From Lytechinus pictus (lineage: Eukaryota), in the NCBI RefSeq assembly GCF_037042905.1, contig NC_087250.1, forward strand, positions 24,492,001-24,556,000: DNA of 64,000 nucleotides. The letters run 5' to 3'. This document shows, in pieces, positions 6,557 through 52,304 of the stretch; position 1 is the first letter of the stretch, and each line of letters begins with the position of its first letter. A model generated the notes under the pieces. The model ran no database searches, was not told the origin of the DNA, and was given only the letters and a program-made list of their open reading frames with translations. Made by a program: the position numbers and the translations under genes.

Positions 6557-7866
6557 CTATGGAGTGAAAATCAGAGCCCCGTCTTACAAAGAGTTGCGAT
6601 TGATCCGATCAATCGCAACTATGGAAAGCCAGCAACGTCAACATATAAAAACACATGTTTGTTCAAATATTTTTGTAAAAATGATGTGTATTCATACATT
6701 CACTGTTTTTCTGGATAATTCAATGCTTGTTTTCAAAAGACATTGAGTAAATTTTCTGAAGAAACAATTATTACATTGATGGGTTTCCATATACCTGAAA
6801 TTGATCGGGGGCCCGTTGCAGAAAGAGTTGCAATCAATCGCAACTCTAACACTCATGCGCAACTTGATTTTCAACCAATCAACAGTGCGTATTTGGGACT
6901 TGCGAATGATTTTTTGACTTGCGGTTAAACGCAACTCTTTCTGCAACGGGCCCCCATAACTCTTTGTTGACGGGGCATCAAACAGAAAGTTGTAATTTTC
7001 ATCAACTGAGATAGAACAAATTAACAGAATAATAGTGATAATGAGAATGAACTTTGGGTTTAAAAAGCGCCTTTTCTAGACGATATGATAGGCCTACAAA
7101 GTGCCGTTTGAGGCCTAAAACAATGTTTTTTAACAGGTCGAGTGAGGTGATGTTTTGTAGAGTTTGAGGGAGTTTGTTCCAAAGAAACAGGGTTGTCCAA
7201 TTACACTGCAAAACCAAACTGGTGTTAACACTTCTCTGGTTTCAACAGATGTAGATTCCAGGCTGGTGTAGTGTTGCAGTGTAGCCTCCTAAGGCTGAAT
7301 TGCATGAATTTGTACAGAGTAAAAGGTCAATCTATACAAAAACATGCAAGCAGATATGGGGAAACAGAAAGAGAAATGGTACACAAAAGAAGAAATATTG
7401 AAAAGGAGACCCTAAGTTGTAATAATTGTAAAACACAATTAGCATTATAAACAAATGAACAAATTAATTCAAATGTGGTCGCAATTGATGGATGATAGCT
7501 CGTAAGATAAAAAGCATTCAGGGGACTGTTTCATGAAATTTGTCAGCACTGACAAGTTGTCTTTCTCCGACAGTTACTATAGAAACAGTCAGAGGCAAGT
7601 GCCTCACCGCCAATTAAAACCAAGGATTTCACTGAAATAGTCAGCACTGACAGTTTAGTCAGTGGTGACAACTTTCATGAATCGCCTCAAGATATATATT
7701 TATTATTCCAAAATGTAACTATTACATACACTACGATGTTCAGAAGTTCAAAACTGAAAAATATGTACATTTCTTTTATAAGTCACGGTTCTTTGTTCTG
7801 AAGGTGCGATAAGAATGATAGAATACTAGGTTTGTCATTCCAAAGGTATGTTAATCCAACAGTGAA

Positions 7867-8444: not shown

Positions 8445-8812
8445 GGTTACTCTGTTAGTTTGAAAATTAAGTATGGTTTGTTCGTCTGGAAATGAAATAG
8501 GGTTGTTAGTCTGAAAACAACTAACATTATAAAACCTCACTTCATCTTCAGACTATCGAACCTTCAGATTAACAAAGATTATTTCGTTTTCGGATGAACA
8601 AACCTTAGGAATAACAAGCCTTCATCTTAACAAACCTTTGGACTAGTACATTTTCAAAATATCAAGCATTCAGAGTATTTGAACCTTTGAATCACTACTG
8701 GTGATTGATGTCCATATCACTTTTTAATAATTGGAGATAACATCTGAGAGTGTAGGGTATATTTAAAAGTACATGCAGACATTGTAAATTGTGTACATTG
8801 TGAAATACTAAC

Positions 8813-11199
8813 CTTGATGTACAGTGATAACTCTTCTTTGGCCTTAGCAAGTGCTGGTCGCTTCTTAAGTGCTTTCTCTGAGGCCTTCTTGGTAAGTCTG
8901 ATTCCAACCACCGTGTCTATGAACAAGATCGCATTCAGGAACAGAAGTACTAACAGAGGCACACCAAAGGCATACAGATTTGCATCGCCACTGGACAACC
9001 AGCAAAGCTCATCATTGCCGTAGCTGAATCGCATATTAGTACAGCCACAAAGGTCAATGACCAGACAAGCACCTACGATCAAAGCTGGTACGCCCCAGGC
9101 ATAGAGGGAGTACCAAACGTAGAATCTCTGAGATTTACTGGCAATTCTAATCTTGACACGGGTGCCAAATGTGCGATTTAGATCTATGGCAAGGGCATTC
9201 ATCCAGAAGAAGATAGCGAGCCAGAAGAAATGGGTAATGGCTGCCACTGCTTTACAGAAGCCACCATGTTCCGTGCTCACTCCACTCACAAACACTAATA
9301 AAAATGTGAGTAAGAGGGCAACAGATAAGGTAAGGACCGATTTCCCAGCCAAGTTAAGAAGTTCAGGAAAGATGGCATAAGTTGTTATGATGATCAGTAC
9401 TGAAACAACAGACAGTGCATTTCCTATGGTGTTCATAGTGTCCAGGCCAGGAGGTAAATTACGTTCTTCATAAGCAGGAACTTTTAGGCAGTAAAGAGCT
9501 GAACCATCTTGACCTATTTGAAACTCATCATCTAACAGGACTGTATCCTTGCCGGTGAAATGGAGAAATACTTGTGACTGATTTTTCACAATCTCAAACT
9601 GACCCGCATCTAGTTTGACATATGTGTCACAAGCAAGTCTGGTGGTGTTGCCTGTGCAAACGTCACCGATGCTGGAGACACTCATGATATAAACTGCCCT
9701 TTCTCTGGTAAAGTTAATTCGGAATGGTAGCAGGGTGGGTTTGCCATAATCTGAAAATGTCCAGGAGTTGTGGGACTCACAGTCCCATCCTGCAGGAACA
9801 TCAATAAGCATTTCTATCATCGACAGGTTCCCGAATGAAGGCATATACAAAGTGGACGTTACGTTGGTTATGATACCTGCAGTACCCTGATAGAACTCCA
9901 AAGACGTTTGGGGTAGTGTAGTAAAGTTCATTTCAGTGTCAAAGCACACTTGACATATTGACTGACGAGAGTCATTTTCCGAATCACCAGTGGGGATACA
10001 GGAAATTTCAGGCACTGACACAACGGAAAGGGACGTCAGTGTGTCCAGTGGCGACTGAATGAGGACATTATTTACCGTTGCCAGAAGGTAGTCAGTGTCC
10101 AATGATGTCATATTCACTTCATCCTGGAGAGAATAGAACGTAACGCACAGCCCTCCTCTCTCATCTACCGGTAGACGTTCACACTGCTTTGTTGTCGTGT
10201 TGTATTCAAATCCTATGAAGCAAAAGAGCAATTGACATTTGCTTGACAGTGGGTCAAAGGCTTCATTTTCAGCACATGCCAATTCCTGGTTTCTGTCGAT
10301 AAAGTTAAAGAATTCTGCAAATGCAATCGCCGCACTCACTGTGTATATTAATGCGCCATCATATTTGACCGATTTGCACAATTCCCAATAGTCTGCACAT
10401 ACGTCAATGCCATTGCAATAAGCACAGTGTAGATTCTGGTAGATGGTACCATTGTGTACTATAGGTGCAAGGTATGATGGACACTTCGTAGGTTCTGAAG
10501 AACACGAAGTCACATCTACTCCAGAATAACAATGCCGAGCGTACATATCATTTGGTATATCTTCTGACGGCCTGAGTTGTTTAGAGCAGAAGTTTTCTAT
10601 CAGTTCTTTTTCTGTGTATTGGGTTTGTTTTCCATTCGAATCACTACTGCTACCAATAATACCAAGATCACAGTCCCATTTCCAACTCCAAAACTCGATA
10701 CCGGTAGAAATGTCGTGACACAATGCACAATACAAATTCCTAAAGTGACCGATGCTTTCAACAGTAACGGGTGTGTACAATTCTTCGTCGGGTTTCTGCG
10801 GGTTCTCACACTTGGTGCGGATTACGCTATGGGCAAGGACATAGGAGGGGCACTTAGAAATCATCTGGTAGTGAGAAAAGATGGTGATATTGCCTCCATA
10901 GTAGTAAGCAACACCAGAAACGGTAGCACATGAGAGATACGGGAGAAAGTCATCTTCCCAAGCCATCCTCTCAGGTATGGAGTCATAAACAGAGTCGGGG
11001 TATAAATGTCGTGTGTTCAACGTTCCAGCAGCAGACATATCTTCGGCATCTTTGCAACACTCATTATAAAGGACACATTGAGAATCGCATTTACATGGGC
11101 GCAGTATCCAGTGTCGTGAACACGAGAAAGGAGCTCTACGATGTCCACATGTTGGATCGAGCACGTTGTACTGGTGTTCTTCAGTGCACGTCAATGGTT
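8813..11199 (-). CDS. Class B (Methuselah-like/secretin-family) GPCR, coding exon 2: SMB-like domain, Cys-rich ectodomain, TM1-TM5
   Basis: Lies within the 825-aa ORF. SMB-like CKCDSQCVLYNECCKD; two NxxCAxC motifs (FRNLYCALC, YQNLHCAYC); class B TM motifs (CKAVAAITHFFWLAIFFWM, YSLYAWGVP, YGNDELCWL). Acceptor catacag| at 11200-11201 and donor AAG|gttagt at 8811-8812. Confidence 0.92.
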
Positions 11200-12471
11200 C
11201 TGTATGTTAATGAATCCAGAAGACATTCTATGAAGAATATATCTTGTTTGTTACAGGGAACTCTGTCTAAGTTGAATCTTTTGAGACCACAGAAATGAAA
11301 TCTGTTTGACGAAGGAGAACTTTGACTTGTAAGAGGGAGAAAGAGGTATATATTTAGGGGCGGGTTCAGCTTCCGCCAATAGGGGGGGGGGGATCGAATT
11401 TTGTTACCCATATATCGCGTATAAGTTGCGATCGAGCAAAAATTTCAACATTTTTATTACAAAAATCCAATTGTGATAGATTTTGACATAACATTTGGAA
11501 AATAATGTCATATTTCAACCTTGATTCCTTTTCTCTTTTCTTTTCTTGGTCGTGAAAAATTGGAGGGAGCTCGGGGAGGCAAAACGCTCATGTCCTATAA
11601 CAGTCAATTTTTAGCTTTATTCTTATAAAACAACATAAATGTGTAATAATCTCATAAGCCCTATTTAAATAGTGTGTACGCGAAGAGCGAGCTAAAAAAA
11701 ATTGGAATTTTATGTATTGTTCTGAAAATTGAACATTCTGAGTAAAGTTTGTGAACCTTAACAAGATGCGTATGTAACTAGATAATTACTGCGAACGCAA
11801 AGCGCGAGCAGACATTTTTAATATGCGTTCTGGCCTGATCGAAAAGGGACTTGTTAAGGACGTTTTGCAGTTAGTCATTAAGACGATTATATTTCAACGA
11901 TTAAATTATGCGGCGCAAAGCGCGAGCTGAAAATTTTTGACATTCCGACCTAAAAAATTGACATTCTAAGCACTTATTTGTAATTATTAACGGTATATAA
12001 AGGTATATGCAAAACATTTGGTGCAAGCGGAAAAATTAGATTTCTGACCTTAAAACGGGACACTCGTAAATCATGAAAGGCCTGGGCACTCTTCGCCGGG
12101 TCAGCCGTATCCCTTACGTTCAGCATAACGGCAAAGACAATAATTGCGGCCTCCGCCTAGATTATAGGCTAGACCAAATCGCATACATTCGTAATTCCGT
12201 AGCTTCGTTATTCCTAGTCCACGTCCTGGACGATTTTTATTGATTGGGCAAACCAAAGGGGCAAACCCTATCGGACCGTACCGATACCCCGCGCGCACAC
12301 ATAACCAACACACACACGCCCTCCACTGATTCACTTACCCCCAGTGATTCGCCTAACCCAGTGATTCACTTTCCCCGAAAAAGGGGAAGTGTGTATGCGT
12401 GTTCTGGGGATGTAGTGTATTATGTGTTTGGTAGTCGTATAGTACCAAATATAACAACAGTCCAGGAGGTG

Positions 12472-45219: not shown

Positions 45220-45516
45220 CTTCATGAAGAAATGGGAGATTGAAAATGGAATCTGAGCAATTTTCATGAACTGCTTTCGATATCAGTAACATCCGTCATC
45301 TTCGACGAAATTTTTTTGGTGCGTGGTGATTTTTTTTTTCAACATTCTGAATAGATATTAAAACAAGCGATTCTGAGCTTATGGTAAAGGCATTTTATTA
45401 TCTACTGAAAATGTATTTGGTAAATTTGGTTGACAATTATTTTTAGTAAAGTATAGATATGCGACATGACATCAAAGAGGGGTGACATTTAAAAAAATCT
45501 TCAGAATGATGCTTAC

Positions 45517-45651
45517 AGTTTCTTGAGTCTTCTCCGAGCCAGTGAGACACGAAAGCTTGATGTTATCTTTAGCAAATTCAAGACTAAATGTGATTACAGT
45601 CGTGACTTCGTAGAATGGTTCCGATAAGCTGTAATTCTGTCCTTTCACACC
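45517..45651 (-). CDS. ZU5/UPA-DD gene exon (second UPA-like module)
   Basis: tttccag| and ACT|gtaagc, 135 nt, phase 0-0. Open reading GVKGQNYSLSEPFYEVTTVITFSLEFAKDNIKLSC. Confidence 0.75.
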
Positions 45652-45795: not shown

Positions 45796-45847
<52 letters not shown>

Positions 45848-45897
45848 CGTAAATAAATCAAGCATTAACGCTAGACGTAGCTTCCAAGTATCTCTTT

Positions 45898-45934
45898 TAT
45901 TACGAGCTTTCGGCCAGTGGGGCCTTCATCAGGC
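45898..45934 (-). ncRNA. Hammerhead-ribozyme-like motif, separated from its 5' flank by a foldback insertion
   Basis: CUGAUGA-AGGCC-ccacu-GGCC-GAAA-GCUCGUAAUAAA. The original 5' flank continues at 48148-48160. Confidence 0.6.
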
Positions 45935-48139
45935 AGTTTATAATCACTCGCGTCGCGTGCGGGTTCGTAATCACTCGCGTTTTGAATTTTTGGCGATTTT
46001 TTTTTTATTTCGGTGCGGTTTTTTTTAAACGGTGTCTTCAATGGGACAGACATGCAGGGAAATAAAATGAAATTCGAGTTTCGTTTTAAGCCGGCAAGTG
46101 CCTGAAATAAGATGTAGGCCTACTCGACTACTGTTTTAACATAACAAACAAGCAAATCAGCCATGTGGCTCAACTAACTTAGAATAGATCCGGACTTCTA
46201 CTGTGTCTTATAGAGGACTCCGAGTCGGAACTTGCCATATCTGTCACATCGATATTACATCGTATCATTGCCATATGCGGACATGCCTGCATGCAATGGC
46301 CCCAAGGCGGCCGGACCCGACCGCGTACGGACACGACGTGCATCGGTAGCATGGAGCAAGCTAGTTGAGTCGAGCTGAGTTAGATCTCACGTTACATATG
46401 AGGCGCCGATTGTACCAATATTATATAAAACAATTATTTGTTATATAATCATAATTTATTATATAATAACTATTATTTATATATAATTTACATTTTATTT
46501 GAAAATAATTACTATTATATAAAATAACATTTCTAATTATTTATAGGAGCGCCTTGAGCACCTAACAAGGTGGATATGTGCGCAATATAAATACCCTATA
46601 TTATTATTATATATAATTCCAAGTAATACTTCATTATTTGTAAATAATGATTATTTGTTGTCATTATTTATAAATAATGATTATTTGTTTTTCATTATTT
46701 ATAAATAATGATTAATTGTTTTTCACTATTTATAAATAATGATTATTTGTTTTTCATTATTTATAAATACTGATTGTTTGTTTTTCATTATTTATAAATA
46801 ATGATGATTTGTTTTTCATTATTTGTAAATAATGATTTTTTTTTTCATTATTTTTAAATAATGATTATTTGTTTTTCATTATTTATAAATAAGTTTTTCG
46901 AGTTTTCTATTATTTGTAAATAATAATTATTTATTAACAATGCCAGTGCACATTTCTTTATTTATAAATAATTTGTTGAGTTTCCCATTATTTATAAATA
47001 ATGATTATTTGTTAAATAATGAAGACGTCTACTTCATTATTTATAAATATTTTTTTCGAGTGCGCCATTATTCTCATTATTTATAAATAATCATTATTTA
47101 ATGTTCGAGTTTTCCATTATTTATAAATAACGATTATTTGTTAAATAATGAAATATCTACCTCACTATTTATAAATAATGAAAATTCATCGTGTTTCATT
47201 ATTTATTAATAACAATTTTGTTTCAATATCCCATTATTTATAAATAATCATTATTTATAAAAGATTTTTACAGTTTGCCATTATATACAAATAATCGTTA
47301 TTTATATACAAATAACCATTATTTATAAATAATGAAAAACAAATAATCATTATTTATAAATAATGAAAAACAAATAATCATTATTTATAAATAATGAAAA
47401 ACAAACAATCATTATTTATAAATAATGAAAAACAAATAATCATTATTTGTAAATAATGGAATGTCGAACTATTATTATTTACAAATAATGAAGTATTACT
47501 TGGAATTATATATAATTAGAAATGTTATTTTATATAATAGTAATTATTTTCAAACAAAATGTAAATTATATGTAAATAATAGTTATTATTCAATAAATAA
47601 TGATTATATAACAAATAATTGTTCTATATAATATTGGTACAATCGGCGCCTCATATGTAACGTGGGATCTAACTCAGCTCGACTCACGTTAGCTTGCTCC
47701 ATGCTACCGATGCACGTCGTGTGCGACCGCGGCCGGGTCCGGCCGCCTTGGGGCCATTGCATGCAGGCATGTCCGCATATGGGAATGATACGATGTAATA
47801 TCGATGTGGCAGATATGGCAAGTTCCGACTCGGAGTCCTCGTATAAGACACAGTAGAAGTCCGGATCTATTCTAAGTTAGTTGAGCCACATGGCTGATTT
47901 GCTTGTTTGTTATGTTAAAACAGTAGTCGAGTAGGCCTACATCTTATTTAAGGCACTTGCCGGTTTAAAACGAAACTCGAATTTCAATTTCATTTTATTT
48001 TTCCAGTACGTTTGTCCCATTGAAGACACCGTTAGAAAATAAATCGCACCGAAATAAACAAAAATCGCCAAAAATAAAAAACGCGTGTGATTACCAACGC
48101 GACGCGAGTGATTACGAACGCGAGTGAATATAATAAGCC
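45932..48139. mobile_element. Foldback-type non-autonomous transposon (2.2 kb, almost entirely inverted repeat)
   Basis: About 600-bp outer arms (45932-46540 vs 47510-48139) enclose inverted arrays of AT-rich units (TCATTATTTATAAATAATGA). Flanked by a duplicated (C)CTTCATCA at 45924-45931 and 48140-48147. Confidence 0.85.
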
Positions 48140-48442
48140 CTTCATCAGGCCAGCATTGAAATTAACTTTGGTTTATGTTCATCTGGAGGAGTAGTAGTCT
48201 TGTGTAGGTAATACTATAGTTCCAGTGTCATGGAGAGTGTGTCGACTAGGTGTGCAGGAATGAGGTAAAGTGAGGTTTACCTCATTCCTCACTTTACCTC
48301 ATTCCTCACTTTTACCTTTTCTCACTCACTTTTCCTCATTCCTGCACACCTAGTCGACACACTCTCCATAACACTGGAACTATAGTATTACCTACACAAG
48401 ACTACTACTCCTCCAGATGAACAGAAACCAAAGTTAATTTCA

Positions 48443-48484
48443 ATGCTGGCCTGATGAAGGCCCCACTGGCCAAAAGCTCGCAAT
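48443..48484 (+). ncRNA. Hammerhead-ribozyme-like motif, core mutated (GAAA to AAAA)
   Basis: UGCUGGC-CUGAUGA-AGGCC-ccacu-GGCC-AAAA-GCUCGCA, followed by AAUAAA. Confidence 0.55.
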
Positions 48485-48589
48485 AAAAGAGATACTTGGA
48501 AGCTACGTCTAGCGTTAATGCTTGATTTATTTACGCCCATACGTAGAACATGACGCGCTGCAATACACGTTGTGCAAAGGGCCCTCTTC

Positions 48590-48623
<34 letters not shown>

Positions 48624-48672
48624 TTGTAAATAATTCAGCATCAACGCAAGACGTAGCTTCCATGTATCTCTT

Positions 48673-48717
48673 TATTACAAGCTTTCGGCCAATGGGGCCT
48701 TCATCAGGCCTATAATG
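48673..48717 (-). ncRNA. Minimal hammerhead-ribozyme-like motif (Penelope-type), intact core
   Basis: AUUAUAGGC-CUGAUGA-AGGCC-ccauu-GGCC-GAAA-GCUUGUAAU, overlapping an AAUAAA. Both conserved core boxes and a stem II are present, and the flanks are complementary. Confidence 0.7.
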
Positions 48718-49619
48718 CATTGAAACAAACAGAACAAACCATACAAATAAGGTCGAAATAACAAAGTGAATGTGTAACAAAGGGTACAGAACAGAAGGGT
48801 TACACTAAGATAACAAAAATAACAGAAATTAACAACAGAGGGGGTTGAGTACAGAACAGAAGGATTATAGTAAGATAACAAAAAATAACAACAGAGGGGG
48901 TGATGACTTGAACGAGATGGTGGAATACAATAGAAACGATTGGGAAACTTAAGTGTGTGAAAGGACAAGGTATTTACCGGCATTGAAATTAACTTGGGAT
49001 TCTGTTCATCAGGAGGAGTAGTGAGTCTTGTGCAGGTAATACTGTGAAAAAATGAGGATAATGTTTCAAGTAAAATGATAACTCGTTTCAATATTGTATC
49101 TTGTATTTGGGTACATAACTATATTGATCCGTTTACATAGTATTCAAGTAACTGGTGATACAAGTTGTAGTTTGAGACATAAAAGGGTACATTGTCATGC
49201 GCGGGGAAATATATACGTGTAATTTATATTGATGTTTGAGCGGTAAGCAACATAATAAACAAAATAACAGATTAAACATACAGCCATCAGGAGCAAAATA
49301 AACATACAGCCATGAGGAGCAAAGAAATTGTAATAATCAATCAAATAATCAGATATAATCAAGTGATCAAGATACTAAAAGCATACCAAACTGTATAGGG
49401 GTAAAGAGATGTGGCTATTAAACTATATGAAGTGGCCTGTTGGGGCGGGTGAGACTGTAAATTAAACAATGAAATAGGTCGAAAAGGTATGTAACGGGTT
49501 TAATAATTACCAAACATTATTATGCATATATATGAATATGTATATATTCATATGAATATGTATATGTATATGAACATGACGCGCTGTAATACACGTTATG
49601 CAAAGGGCCCTCTTCTTTT

Positions 49620-49622
<3 letters not shown>

Positions 49623-49686
<64 letters not shown>
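49623..49686. repeat. (TA)n microsatellite (others at about 14960-15004, 45798-45845, 48593-48622)
   Basis: Directly visible. Confidence 0.95.
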
Positions 49687-49690
<4 letters not shown>

Positions 49691-49841
49691 CTGCTGAGTA
49701 GTCAAATTTTGCGGTACTTGAGAGCGTCTTTGAGAAGTTTTCCTTCTTAAATATTATCACAAAATCAGATTTTCTTATAATTTAACCCTTGCTCATGCAT
49801 GGAATGCGATTCTTGAAAATCAACATAGGGCTCAAACATAC

Positions 49842-50059
49842 TGCATAGTCTTTGCAGTAAGGATGTGCAATATAGATTCGTAGAGTGGGCTGTGGGGGGT
49901 TGGTCATGAACAGAGGCTGCGATACTTCACAGATGAACTGAACTCCATGAATGTCGCTTGAAGACAAAGCAAAGTATTGAAGATGACGCGTTGAGAAGGT
50001 AACCCTGCCTTCGGAGGTTTCGACAGATTTAGGAAGCAATGTCCTATACCCGAATTCTC
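49842..50059 (-). CDS. ZU5/UPA-DD gene exon: ZU5 end and UPA start
   Basis: ttctag| and GCA|gtatgt, 218 nt, phase 1-0. Encodes RVTFSTRHLQYFALS...TLRIYI. Confidence 0.8.
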
Positions 50060-50238
50060 CTAGAATATGCAAAAGACGAGAAAAATATTTAGTGTTAAAA
50101 ATAAATTATCGTGTTGAGTCCAAATGTGACTGGATATCAATTTGAATAGTTTCATATTAACACCCCAAAGCCGACAAAAAAATCAAACAAGAGAATTAAT
50201 TCTTATTAGAAACGTATACTAACTAAATTTGGTATTAC

Positions 50239-50584
50239 CTGGACCTATTTTGCTGTAAAGCTTTACACTCAAGTCTTGCTTCTTTTGCTTGTCTTGGTCT
50301 GGTTTGATGCAATGAGGAAGCACTGTAGTTGCCGATTTGAGAAGGTCATGGTTGAAGGAACATTGGATGATCGGTGTTATGAGAACTTCACCAGCATCCA
50401 GGGGTAACTTGGATGAACTTCCTTTTAGGACAGTGAGAGTAACAAGTGATCTCATTCCTTTTGGGCATCGATCCTGAAGGAATAGATACTCTGATGCCAA
50501 TGTCATCTAGCTTCAGCTCTCCACCATCATGATCAATGATGCCATGTGTAAACGGAATAAAGAAACCCGGGTGATGTTTCATTG
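50239..50584 (-). CDS. ZU5/UPA-DD gene exon: ZU5 domain (frameshifted at 50459-50462)
   Basis: GIIDHDGGELKLDDIGIRVSIPSGSMPK in one frame continues as GMRSLVTLTV...EVLITPIIQC...VLPHC in the +1 frame. These are typical ZU5 motifs. The exon is 346 nt where 345 is expected. Confidence 0.85.
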
Positions 50585-50896
50585 CTAGGGAAATAATAAC
50601 CTTCGCGTCAATAAATATATATTGTGGCCTTTGGCGTGGCTAAGATAAGACAAAATATTGATCGATATACCATCTCCTCTATTGAAGAATTACCTCTGGT
50701 ATAATCCCTAACTTTGAAACGTACATCTTGAATTTGCTTCCAAATTATATTGATTGCACAATGGTACGCTGATCAACGAAGCAATACAGAATCAACATTG
50801 ATAGGATTGTGCAACAAGGGCCAGCAAATAACTACATGTATTTTGAGGGTTTTTAAGAGATGATCTGTCAGTGAAAAAAACTAGATATGGTATGAC

Positions 50897-51030
50897 TAAT
50901 AATAATAATAATATGCAACATTTATATAGCGCTTAATATAATTTTTTCTAAGCGCTGCATACTATTACCCCGGCTTTAGCACGGCTACCCTGATCGGGCG
51001 CATCGAGCATTTAAGGAATTCCTTCCTACC
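50897..51030 (-). mobile_element. SINE 3' fragment
   Basis: On the minus strand, CCGGGGTAA...AGCGCTTAG...AAGCGCTATATAAAT followed by (TAT)n, matching the tail at 14238-14315. Confidence 0.6.
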
Positions 51031-51300
51031 TATTTTATGAATAAAATAACATAAAACTTTAATCAAATATGTTGTCTCTTTCAAAGAAATACAATAGTTA
51101 CAGATTATCTATGGCAAATTCCCTAAACTTGAGTCATACAGTCAAGAAATATCAGAAACTTCGTTTAAGTAGCTGCACAAGGATGAATAATTAATAGACG
51201 AGAAACATACGCAAACTTGGCTAAAAGAGGCATTTATAGATGATTCTTTTTAATACACCTTTAACTTTAAAATTTTCGTCACATGGCTGCTATTGCCTAC

Positions 51301-51549
51301 CTGTAGCTATACGCTTTGCAGCATCAGTGAAATTAAAAGCTTGAGCAATTTCAAGCAACCTCAGCCTTGTTCCTTCTTGTTTGACCCATCTCTGAAGCAT
51401 TTGTAGAATCATCCGACGTATCATGGCAGGTTCAAAGGTCAAATAAGATGACATCACCTGAAGAATTTCATTAGATGATAGATCCAGTCGTTGGGTGAGT
51501 TCGATGAGGTCTGGAGTTGTACGAATCTTCGCTGAAATTCCATCAATAC
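51301..51549 (-). CDS. ZU5/UPA-DD gene exon: death-like domain 4
   Basis: Encodes DLIELTQRLDLSSNEI...MILQMLQRWVKQEGTRLRLLEIAQAFNFTDAAKRI. 249 nt, phase 1-1, donor G|gtaggc. This frame is not shown in the ORF track. Confidence 0.8.
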
Positions 51550-51727
51550 CTTTTTCATGGGGGAAAAATTACATAATAATTTCACTATGAATGAAGATTC
51601 ATGTTCAACCTCTGTCTCCCAAAATATAACGATCTTGCCCATTTTCCTTTCCAACCAAATTTCTCTAAAACGTGTTAAAAAATAATACCAGTCAGTAAAG
51701 GCTAGTATAATAAAATACATATCATAC

Positions 51728-52012
51728 CTATTTGAGTGTCCTCAATGTTGTATCTTTGAAGAAGCGTAGACACCTTCTCTTCCTTCTCATGTCTTCCTAG
51801 ACGTCTACACCAGTGATGAAGGATTTGCCAAGCTAGTCTCTCCATTAAGGCAGGGTCGCGAGGAGTAATGGCAGTTGCGATGTCAATAACCAAACGAAGA
51901 GCTTTAGTCACTTCTAAGGCCAAATTCACATTCGCCAATGGACGAACGACTGTACACAGTTCTGAATTACTAGGTGAACCTCCACACTCGTCGAAGTCTC
52001 CAATAATGCCAT
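51728..52012 (-). CDS. ZU5/UPA-DD gene exon: divergent death-like domain 3
   Basis: Encodes PSNSELCTVVRPL...ERLAWQILHHWCRR...KVSTLLQRYNI. Donor G|gtatga, phase 1-1. An alternative in-frame acceptor at 52018 is possible. Confidence 0.75.
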
Positions 52013-52304
52013 CTTTGTCTTCGATTTAATAATATAAAGTTGGTTGAATGTTAATCGAAATTTGAATAAAGATTAACCCAATAAAAGGATCGTCAGTACT
52101 CTATTGATAAAACGCGATCTGTCATTTGTTTTTAGCATTAGCATTACCAATCTCTTGGTTTTGGTTCTATCGAAAGCATATTTTTTGTCACTACAGCTTC
52201 TTTCATATTTTGCCATTAGCCCCCCCCCCCCCTCTCTCTCTCTCTCTCCCTCTCTCCCTGTCCATCCACGCCCTCGCTTACTGTATTTTTTTATTCATTC
52301 CTAC

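Follow-up and report, generated by a model that had tools for sequence, protein, structure and literature searches.

Hammerhead motifs in an intron of Lytechinus pictus are probably the pseudo-LTR ends of a young Penelope-like element

Introduction

Minimal hammerhead ribozymes (min-HHRs) have been described in the pseudo-LTRs of metazoan Penelope-like elements (PLEs) by Cervera and De la Pena (2014), in the accessible portion of PMC4209133. The keeping of introns through an RNA stage by these elements is an open question. According to the available part of PMC3846280, an antisense template has been proposed for intron retention, the possibility of an unspliced sense RNA being left open. In an Anolis element, according to the available sections of PMC11167929, the reverse transcriptase (RT) begins at either of two internal sites, which set the tail; it works mainly on uncut RNA, and hammerhead cleavage, which occurs only with the protein, is dispensable.

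Three hammerhead-like motifs lie within a 64,000-nucleotide stretch of the Lytechinus pictus genome, hereafter the window. They are most probably the pseudo-LTR ends of a young PLE that twice entered one and the same TA tract within a host intron, and an effect on the host RNA is unlikely. Such hammerheads are already known; the useful part of the present analysis is the set of intron-less stubs belonging to the same family.

The insertion cluster and its host intron

An earlier note on this DNA, made from the letters only, had placed three motifs on both strands of a host intron. All three are present, with cores starting at 45932 (minus strand, copy 1), 48451 (plus strand, copy 2) and 48707 (minus strand, copy 3) and predicted cut sites (H17) at 45904, 48479 and 48679, respectively. 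The intron is likewise confirmed by homology: it runs from 49841 to 45652 on the minus strand with GT..AG borders in phase 0, and a paralog protein has the two flanking host exons joined. These exons match Pfam ZU5 and Death. Among named proteins, the nearest come from Lytechinus sea urchins. The host gene is frameshifted in its ZU5 exon as compared to its paralogs, and RNA on the host exons at 49695-52190 reaches trace depth in one run only. The features of the region are as follows.

45516..45651, minus strand: host exon that follows the intron
45799..45846: left-hand (TA)n target of the clustered insertions (from the sequence; (TA)n flanks recur at copies genome-wide)
45847..45932, minus strand: hammerhead copy 1 and 58 nt past its cut, forming the 3' portion of the left arm in a spliced insertion of subfamily B
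45932..48139: 2.2-kb foldback DNA transposon inside the hammerhead, with an 8-bp target duplication (45924-45931 / 48140-48147)
48140..48276, minus strand: remainder of the left arm with both introns missing (exon 1 48276-48214, exon 2 48213-48151, start of exon 3)
48325..48592, plus strand: intron-less right arm (exon 1 48325-48385, exon 2 48386-48448, exon 3, tail of ~55 nt)
48451-48479, plus strand: core of hammerhead copy 2 in right-arm exon 3, G12 changed to A
48593..48622: (TA)n tract common to both insertions (from the sequence)
48623..49548, minus strand: subfamily-A copy, unspliced and 5'-truncated within intron 1 (98-100% identical to copies elsewhere)
49041-48978, 48977-48710 and from 48709, minus strand: exon 2, intron 2 and exon 3 of the subfamily-A copy (from splice sites)
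48707-48679, minus strand: core of hammerhead copy 3 in subfamily-A exon 3
49565..49622, plus strand: inverted second arm of the subfamily-A insertion, consisting of the tail only, with (TA)n next at 49623-49688
49842..50059, minus strand: host exon that precedes the intron (ZU5/death-domain gene)

Copies 1 and 2 are the two arms of one intron-less subfamily-B insertion (45847-48592), the left arm of which was later split by a foldback transposon that landed in its hammerhead. C3 of copy 1 (45932) and the 5' strand of its helix I now derive from the foldback terminus, which happens to restore C3 and a 3-bp helix I. The foldback transposon itself is represented by 952 candidates; its terminus is identical in 14 of 16 loci, and the 8-bp duplication is also found in the sole locus with both ends (1 of 1). 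On the basis of its long inverted arms, inner tandem repeats and 8-bp target duplication, we take it to resemble the TU-type transposons of sea urchins; it is a passenger only, and the breaker of copy 1. As a whole, the motif cluster is an ordinary pile-up of mobile elements. Two other features of the region were discarded: microRNA matches at 48231-48368 reflect the inverted arms only, and a 147-codon frame at 48675-49118 consists of element intron and exon sequence and is without support.

The element and its coding capacity

A search of the same genome with an 81-nt query returned 206 candidates, with 43 matches at 99-100% among 40 scored. The 30 loci examined are 5'-truncated and set in (TA)n, often with an inverted second arm and with the tail on one arm. 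Longer copies run into RT and GIY-YIG coding sequence. In one of them (L079), a single frame of 976 amino acids, located upstream of the same pseudo-LTR, matches RVT_1 (E 2.5e-08) and carries a C-terminal GIY-YIG domain (E 7e-04, below the Pfam cut-off). In L079 and in a second locus (L100), the pseudo-LTR tail runs on into the 5' ORF leader, the first ATG of the long frame being ~236 nt past the cut site. No copy was found in which a complete upstream promoter is joined to the ORF; in the single long-ORF copy, the upstream repeat is truncated and the leader contains a transposon. The link of the motifs to an RT and GIY-YIG element elsewhere in the genome, the lack of which the earlier note had listed among the results that would count against it, is shown by these copies.

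The L079 protein exhibits the motifs GLKF, DKG and YIDD, a Cx4CxxH linker, and a CCHH motif with the first His replaced; relatives at ~50% identity have full CX2-5CxxC linker and CCHH motifs. The DKG and GLKF motifs do not match the Hydra clade (DKT with RWK), and the C-terminal position of the endonuclease does not match the Naiad clade, in which it is N-terminal. The element would be Neptune-like by these protein motifs. Judged from sequence, it is a young endonuclease-bearing Penelope-like retrotransposon, and the three motifs are its pseudo-LTR ends.

The hammerhead fold

The motif copies are 88-98% alike across ~90 nt. The CUGANGA and GAAA boxes and U16.1-H17 are intact in copies 1 and 3; copy 2 has lost G12, which is A at 48472, turning GAAA into AAAA as reported before. 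G12 is the general base of the hammerhead. AAUAAA follows 3 nt beyond the predicted cut in each of the three motifs. The bare core pattern occurs twice in the 64-kb window against 1.55 occurrences expected, which is not above chance, and the Rfam hammerhead covariance models, proposed earlier as a check, gave zero matches at E<=10 in either 14 kb or 121 nt. The case for a hammerhead therefore rests on the repeat family and not on the motif by itself.

Ten motif families were collected beside RT relatives in 20 loci, with helix I absent from the search pattern. Two AT-rich pattern matches (L080 -1442, L096 +126) were left out as they are not at element ends, and four full-length loci of another family have no motif with the pattern used. 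In the canonical fold, with helix I placed directly after H17, 93.3% of 90 cells are paired across the ten families and 8 of 9 pairs have changed on both sides, as compared to 18-45% for slid controls. Summed over seven independent families, helix I comes to 19 bp against 8.9 +- 2.5 in 5040 permutations (p 0.0008). It is 2-4 bp long in nine of the ten families, the 2 bp found here being the shortest of the set; in family G, it does not form in the canonical register. All ten families have helix II with G10.1-C11.1, preceded by one extra base (97.5% of cells paired); an A-NN-U palindrome (15.1-16.1, for the dimer), AGCU or AAUU, is present in nine. H17 is U, C or A, never G. The fold thus covaries across families, and the earlier note was right in pointing to minimal type I hammerheads of a PLE with a palindromic, dimer-type stem III. 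As to the palindrome itself, AGCU is common to all copies, and the longer AAGCUU reported for them is true of copy 3 only.

The flank pairing that the earlier note regarded as kept despite sequence change, between the 5' flank and the bases right after GAAA, is rejected by the same cross-family counts. A 9-bp helix forms only in unspliced subfamily A; it falls to 3 bp in subfamilies B and C and to 0-1 bp in seven other families. Across the ten families, 52.5% of its cells are paired, versus 86.7% for canonical helix I. Copy 2 has a differing 5' flank because splicing joined exon 2 to the motif there; no compensatory change is involved.

Intron-less copies and their template

From the 5' end, the pseudo-LTR comprises exon 1, intron 1 (546-552 nt), exon 2 (63-64 nt), intron 2 (268-269 nt), exon 3 and the tail. 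In the copy at locus L031, GT..AG introns of 552 and 269 nt surround a 64-nt exon. The acceptor of intron 2 is located 2 nt before the hammerhead core. Both arms of the subfamily-B insertion (copies 1 and 2) lack both introns exactly, while copy 3 keeps them. Genome-wide, exact patterns identify 13 spliced versus 113 unspliced hammerhead ends (13 of 126 spliced; controls 0), as well as 10 exact exon 1-exon 2 junctions. With inverted pairs merged, and three copies of one segmental duplication (C11) merged as well, about 10 independent intron-less insertions remain, in subfamilies A, B and C. A second family, searched with its own pattern, provides one locus with both arms spliced at its own intron. 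Both arms are spliced in all four informative inverted pairs.

The ends of these copies are informative. Of 11 distinct contexts of spliced copies, 10 have their 5' end 51-67 nt above donor 1 and one is not measurable; all 8 contexts of unspliced copies that reach exon 1 go further, extending from 114 to at least 400 nt. The intron-less insertions all run 56-119 nt past the cut site. Two classes of 3' ends, counted as contexts and not as independent events, are observed: 50-64 nt past the cut (7 spliced and 29 unspliced) and 109-119 nt past it (5 spliced and 30 unspliced), leaving out 23 contexts of other families or with unclassified flanks.

RNA was assessed on L031:7170-8810, where three rRNA-depleted runs, with ~6% of each run scanned, gave 57 reads. 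Intron 1 is spanned by 19 reads, all in the direction expected of sense RNA in a usual stranded library. The depth of sense RNA starts in the bin 7720-7774, the same bin as the 5' ends of the spliced copies. From the end of exon 2, 21 reads depart for other sequence. No exon 2-exon 3 joint at >=3 reads and no pile-up of read starts or ends are listed among the 57 reads, which is weak evidence as the RNA depth is very low.

The intron-less stubs appear to be copies of spliced sense RNA, at least in some events. Because they stop at the RNA start and run past the cut site, a spliced, uncut sense RNA is the likely template. Transcription would start at an internal promoter ~57-65 nt above donor 1; a downstream promoter element was not placeable by eye at the expected spacing. 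The RT would then begin at an internal position of the RNA, either ~57 or ~112 nt past an uncut hammerhead, and copy backwards from there into a nicked TA tract. The two 3' end classes fit the internal RT starts described in the available sections of PMC11167929. In the simplest reading, the RT would prime in whichever repeat it binds: use of the downstream, unspliced pseudo-LTR would yield ordinary intron-keeping copies, and use of the spliced 5' leader would yield only an intron-less dead stub of ~240 nt ending at the RNA start. Both arms of an inverted pair would derive from the same kind of RNA. The ribozyme, with its 2-bp helix I and a 4-bp AGCU stem III that forms only in a dimer, is predicted to be weak and would cut late or with protein help, if at all.

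About one in ten ends is thus an exact copy of spliced sense RNA, from the RNA start through the uncut hammerhead. Such ends fit internal priming on sense RNA, intron retention being set by the repeat that the RT uses, and the stubs give defined substrates for an in vitro test.

Competing explanations and joining to host exons

The position of the acceptor invites a different reading, in which splicing acts as a switch: joining to exon 3 would free the core, the RNA would be cut and lost, and RNAs that skip exon 3 into host exons would survive. In six families, the acceptor does sit at the 5' edge of helix I, with its AG 2-6 nt ahead of the core. The end of the intron in unspliced subfamily A is predicted to cover the cut site by base pairing, in a helix that shrinks from 9 to 3 bp upon splicing, and the departure of 21 reads from exon 2, with the exon 2-exon 3 joint below the listing threshold, points in the same direction. 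However, the masking helix is absent in subfamilies B and C and in all other families, helix I still has 2 bp after splicing, and the spliced genomic copies pass through an uncut site. Library size selection would also remove short leader RNAs. Such a switch is thus unlikely, although it fares better than the explanations below.

A circular template, as proposed in the available part of PMC4209133, would be produced by hammerheads cutting a tandem RNA and by ligation of the monomer; an RT crossing the junction would then give copies that extend past the cut. This is compatible with the unspliced copies. In a circle, the ORF would lie ahead of exon 1, but all 10 measurable spliced contexts stop within 67 nt, and the available sections of PMC11167929 identify uncut RNA as the main substrate. 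We consider this route improbable for the copies at hand.

The earlier note went on to suggest that the two intact cores could cleave or terminate the pre-mRNA of the host gene. Copies 1 and 3 are indeed intact and sense to that gene, the foldback terminus gives copy 1 a 3-bp helix I again, and copy 3 offers two acceptors, a donor and AAUAAA, all in the sense direction. Brought near each other by the foldback hairpin, the two copies might pair via AGCU and cut the host RNA, or AAUAAA might end it early. Against this, the antisense of copy 2 follows copy 3 within ~90 nt in the host pre-mRNA, and the two are predicted to form a hairpin (-173 kcal/mol, z -18.9) in which each core base of copy 3 is paired (probability ~1.0) and which hides the core, the acceptor region and most of AAUAAA, in a calculation that sets aside co-transcriptional order and proteins. 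With copy 3 locked in this predicted way, copy 1 is without a dimer partner. According to the available text of PMC4209133, minimal hammerheads cleave poorly even as dimers. The helix I of the family described here has only 2 bp. The AAUAAA is missing in related families (C, at L091, and D), three reads continue past it into TA, and its place is ~50 nt ahead of the first 3' end and before the ORF of the element itself. As noted above, the host gene is frameshifted in its ZU5 exon and has almost no reads. Cleavage within an intron need not block splicing. The suggestion is thus unsupported: cleavage of the host RNA is unlikely on these predictions, and the full scheme, with AGCU pairing or early termination, is very unlikely. 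A regulatory role in the host is possible and has no support.

Joining to other host genes is seen in the reads leaving exon 2, which splices into host exons: three continuations map directly after host AG acceptors, two more loose-end consensus sequences being mixtures that were left unmapped. For one of the three mapped acceptors, a promoter-bearing copy is located upstream on the same strand; no element copy was found in this assembly upstream of the other two, within 110 kb (C2:45160804) and 80 kb (C8:37553103). These two acceptors would suggest that joining occurs partly in trans, the two leader exons being a mobile spliced leader that is attached to many host mRNAs and skips the hammerhead exon, which would destroy the element's own spliced product. 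The lack of nearby copies is explained more simply by RNA from other animals with private insertions than by trans-splicing, and a mobile leader is accordingly a very remote prospect. What the family does donate to host genes is a promoter and two exons, a route of gene regulation that we did not find described in the literature searched. That literature consisted mostly of papers outside subscription; judged by title or abstract start, none of those listed describes PLE-host chimeric transcripts or spliced or intron-less genomic PLE copies.

That the short copies are DNA deletion derivatives is hardly credible: the exon 2 donor does share a preceding short repeat with the intron 2 acceptor, but two separate segments were lost exactly at GT..AG in three subfamilies and in a second family, and 19 RNA reads cross the first junction, which contradicts this reading.

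Comparison with known systems

The hammerheads resemble the min-HHRs presented in the available part of PMC4209133 in their core boxes, the extra base between 9 and 10.1, G10.1-C11.1 and the palindromic 15.2-16.2, as well as in the lack of a real helix III and the occurrence of opposite-strand copies a few hundred bases apart. The same portion of that paper gives the D. virilis Penelope motif the same 2-bp helix I with an intron end at its 5' side. Unlike these, the element described here has two introns, a 4-bp helix II and a spliced form present as genomic copies; its ribozyme is a predicted one.

The overall layout is that given for PLEs in the accessible text of PMC8557442 (Craig et al. 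2021). The Neptune clade of PLEs with a C-terminal endonuclease, as characterized there, shares the order RT then GIY-YIG, the GxKF and DKG motifs and a Cys-rich linker, together with (TA)n targets, inverted truncated arms and a tail on one arm. It differs from the element described here, as far as that text goes, by its CX2-5CxxC linker in place of Cx4CxxH; here the first His of CCHH is also replaced and the tail is ~55 nt long.

Poseidon of Anolis (Frangieh et al. 2024), in the available sections of PMC11167929, is the closest match for the 3' ends: two such ends past an uncut hammerhead define its tail, and its targets are AT-rich. Its ORF starts within the hammerhead, whereas here the ATG is ~236 nt past the cut and the leader is spliced twice. 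For the 5' end, the counterpart is D. virilis Penelope (Schostak et al. 2008), which, in the available part of PMC2377424, starts internally, some dozens of bases upstream of an intron in the leader, and has both spliced and unspliced RNA; it has one 75-bp intron, and that part of the text does not describe intron-less genomic copies. Set beside these systems, the spliced stubs and the donated leader exons of the L. pictus element are a modest but testable addition.

Chimeric transcripts of the element

Exon 2 of the element is joined, in a contig of RNA run X1, to a host acceptor on contig C6 (L116/L117), and a promoter-bearing copy of the element (L128:26-1313) lies on the same strand, 8-27 kb upstream of that acceptor. 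The C6 case is a chimeric transcript formed in cis, which skips the hammerhead exon. Reads of run X8 join exon 2 to two further host acceptors, L102 and L115, upstream of which no copy of the element was found in this assembly (110 kb and 80 kb examined, respectively).

Host acceptors joined to exon 2 of the element
G000:C6:16878000-16906100, copy and acceptor on one strand: L128 with L116/L117 (X1 contig)
C2:45160804: acceptor L102 (X8 reads)
C8:37553103: acceptor L115 (X8 reads)

The host gene and its surroundings

The host ZU5/death-domain gene may be a pseudogene, or its frameshift an assembly error, since a ZU5 exon carries a one-base frameshift relative to the paralogs (window 50460-50465, minus strand), the final frame ends about nine codons early in the last exon (window 44275-43982), and the gene attracts almost no RNA reads. 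A short abundant repeat inside a host intron (window 50897-51030) collects ~750 reads per run that originate elsewhere in the genome. Elsewhere in the window, a frame of 829 codons (8717-11206, minus strand) looks, by eye, like an adhesion-type seven-transmembrane receptor.

Related copies and families

The leader of L079, the long-ORF copy, is broken by a second foldback element (L079:5890-7720) flanked by a TA duplication; in L100, the same junction is intact and lacks this insert. At L033:3491-7075, a partly inverted tandem array of a 405-nt unit adjoins a truncated copy of the element.

Among other Penelope-like families, the abundant one of L083-L086, with frames of ~909 amino acids, gave no hammerhead match to our motif pattern at the four loci. 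At L087 (6361 and 2792, minus strand), a further family is represented by a complete element in tandem arrangement; its hammerhead combines the U3-A8 core variant with an AAUU palindrome.
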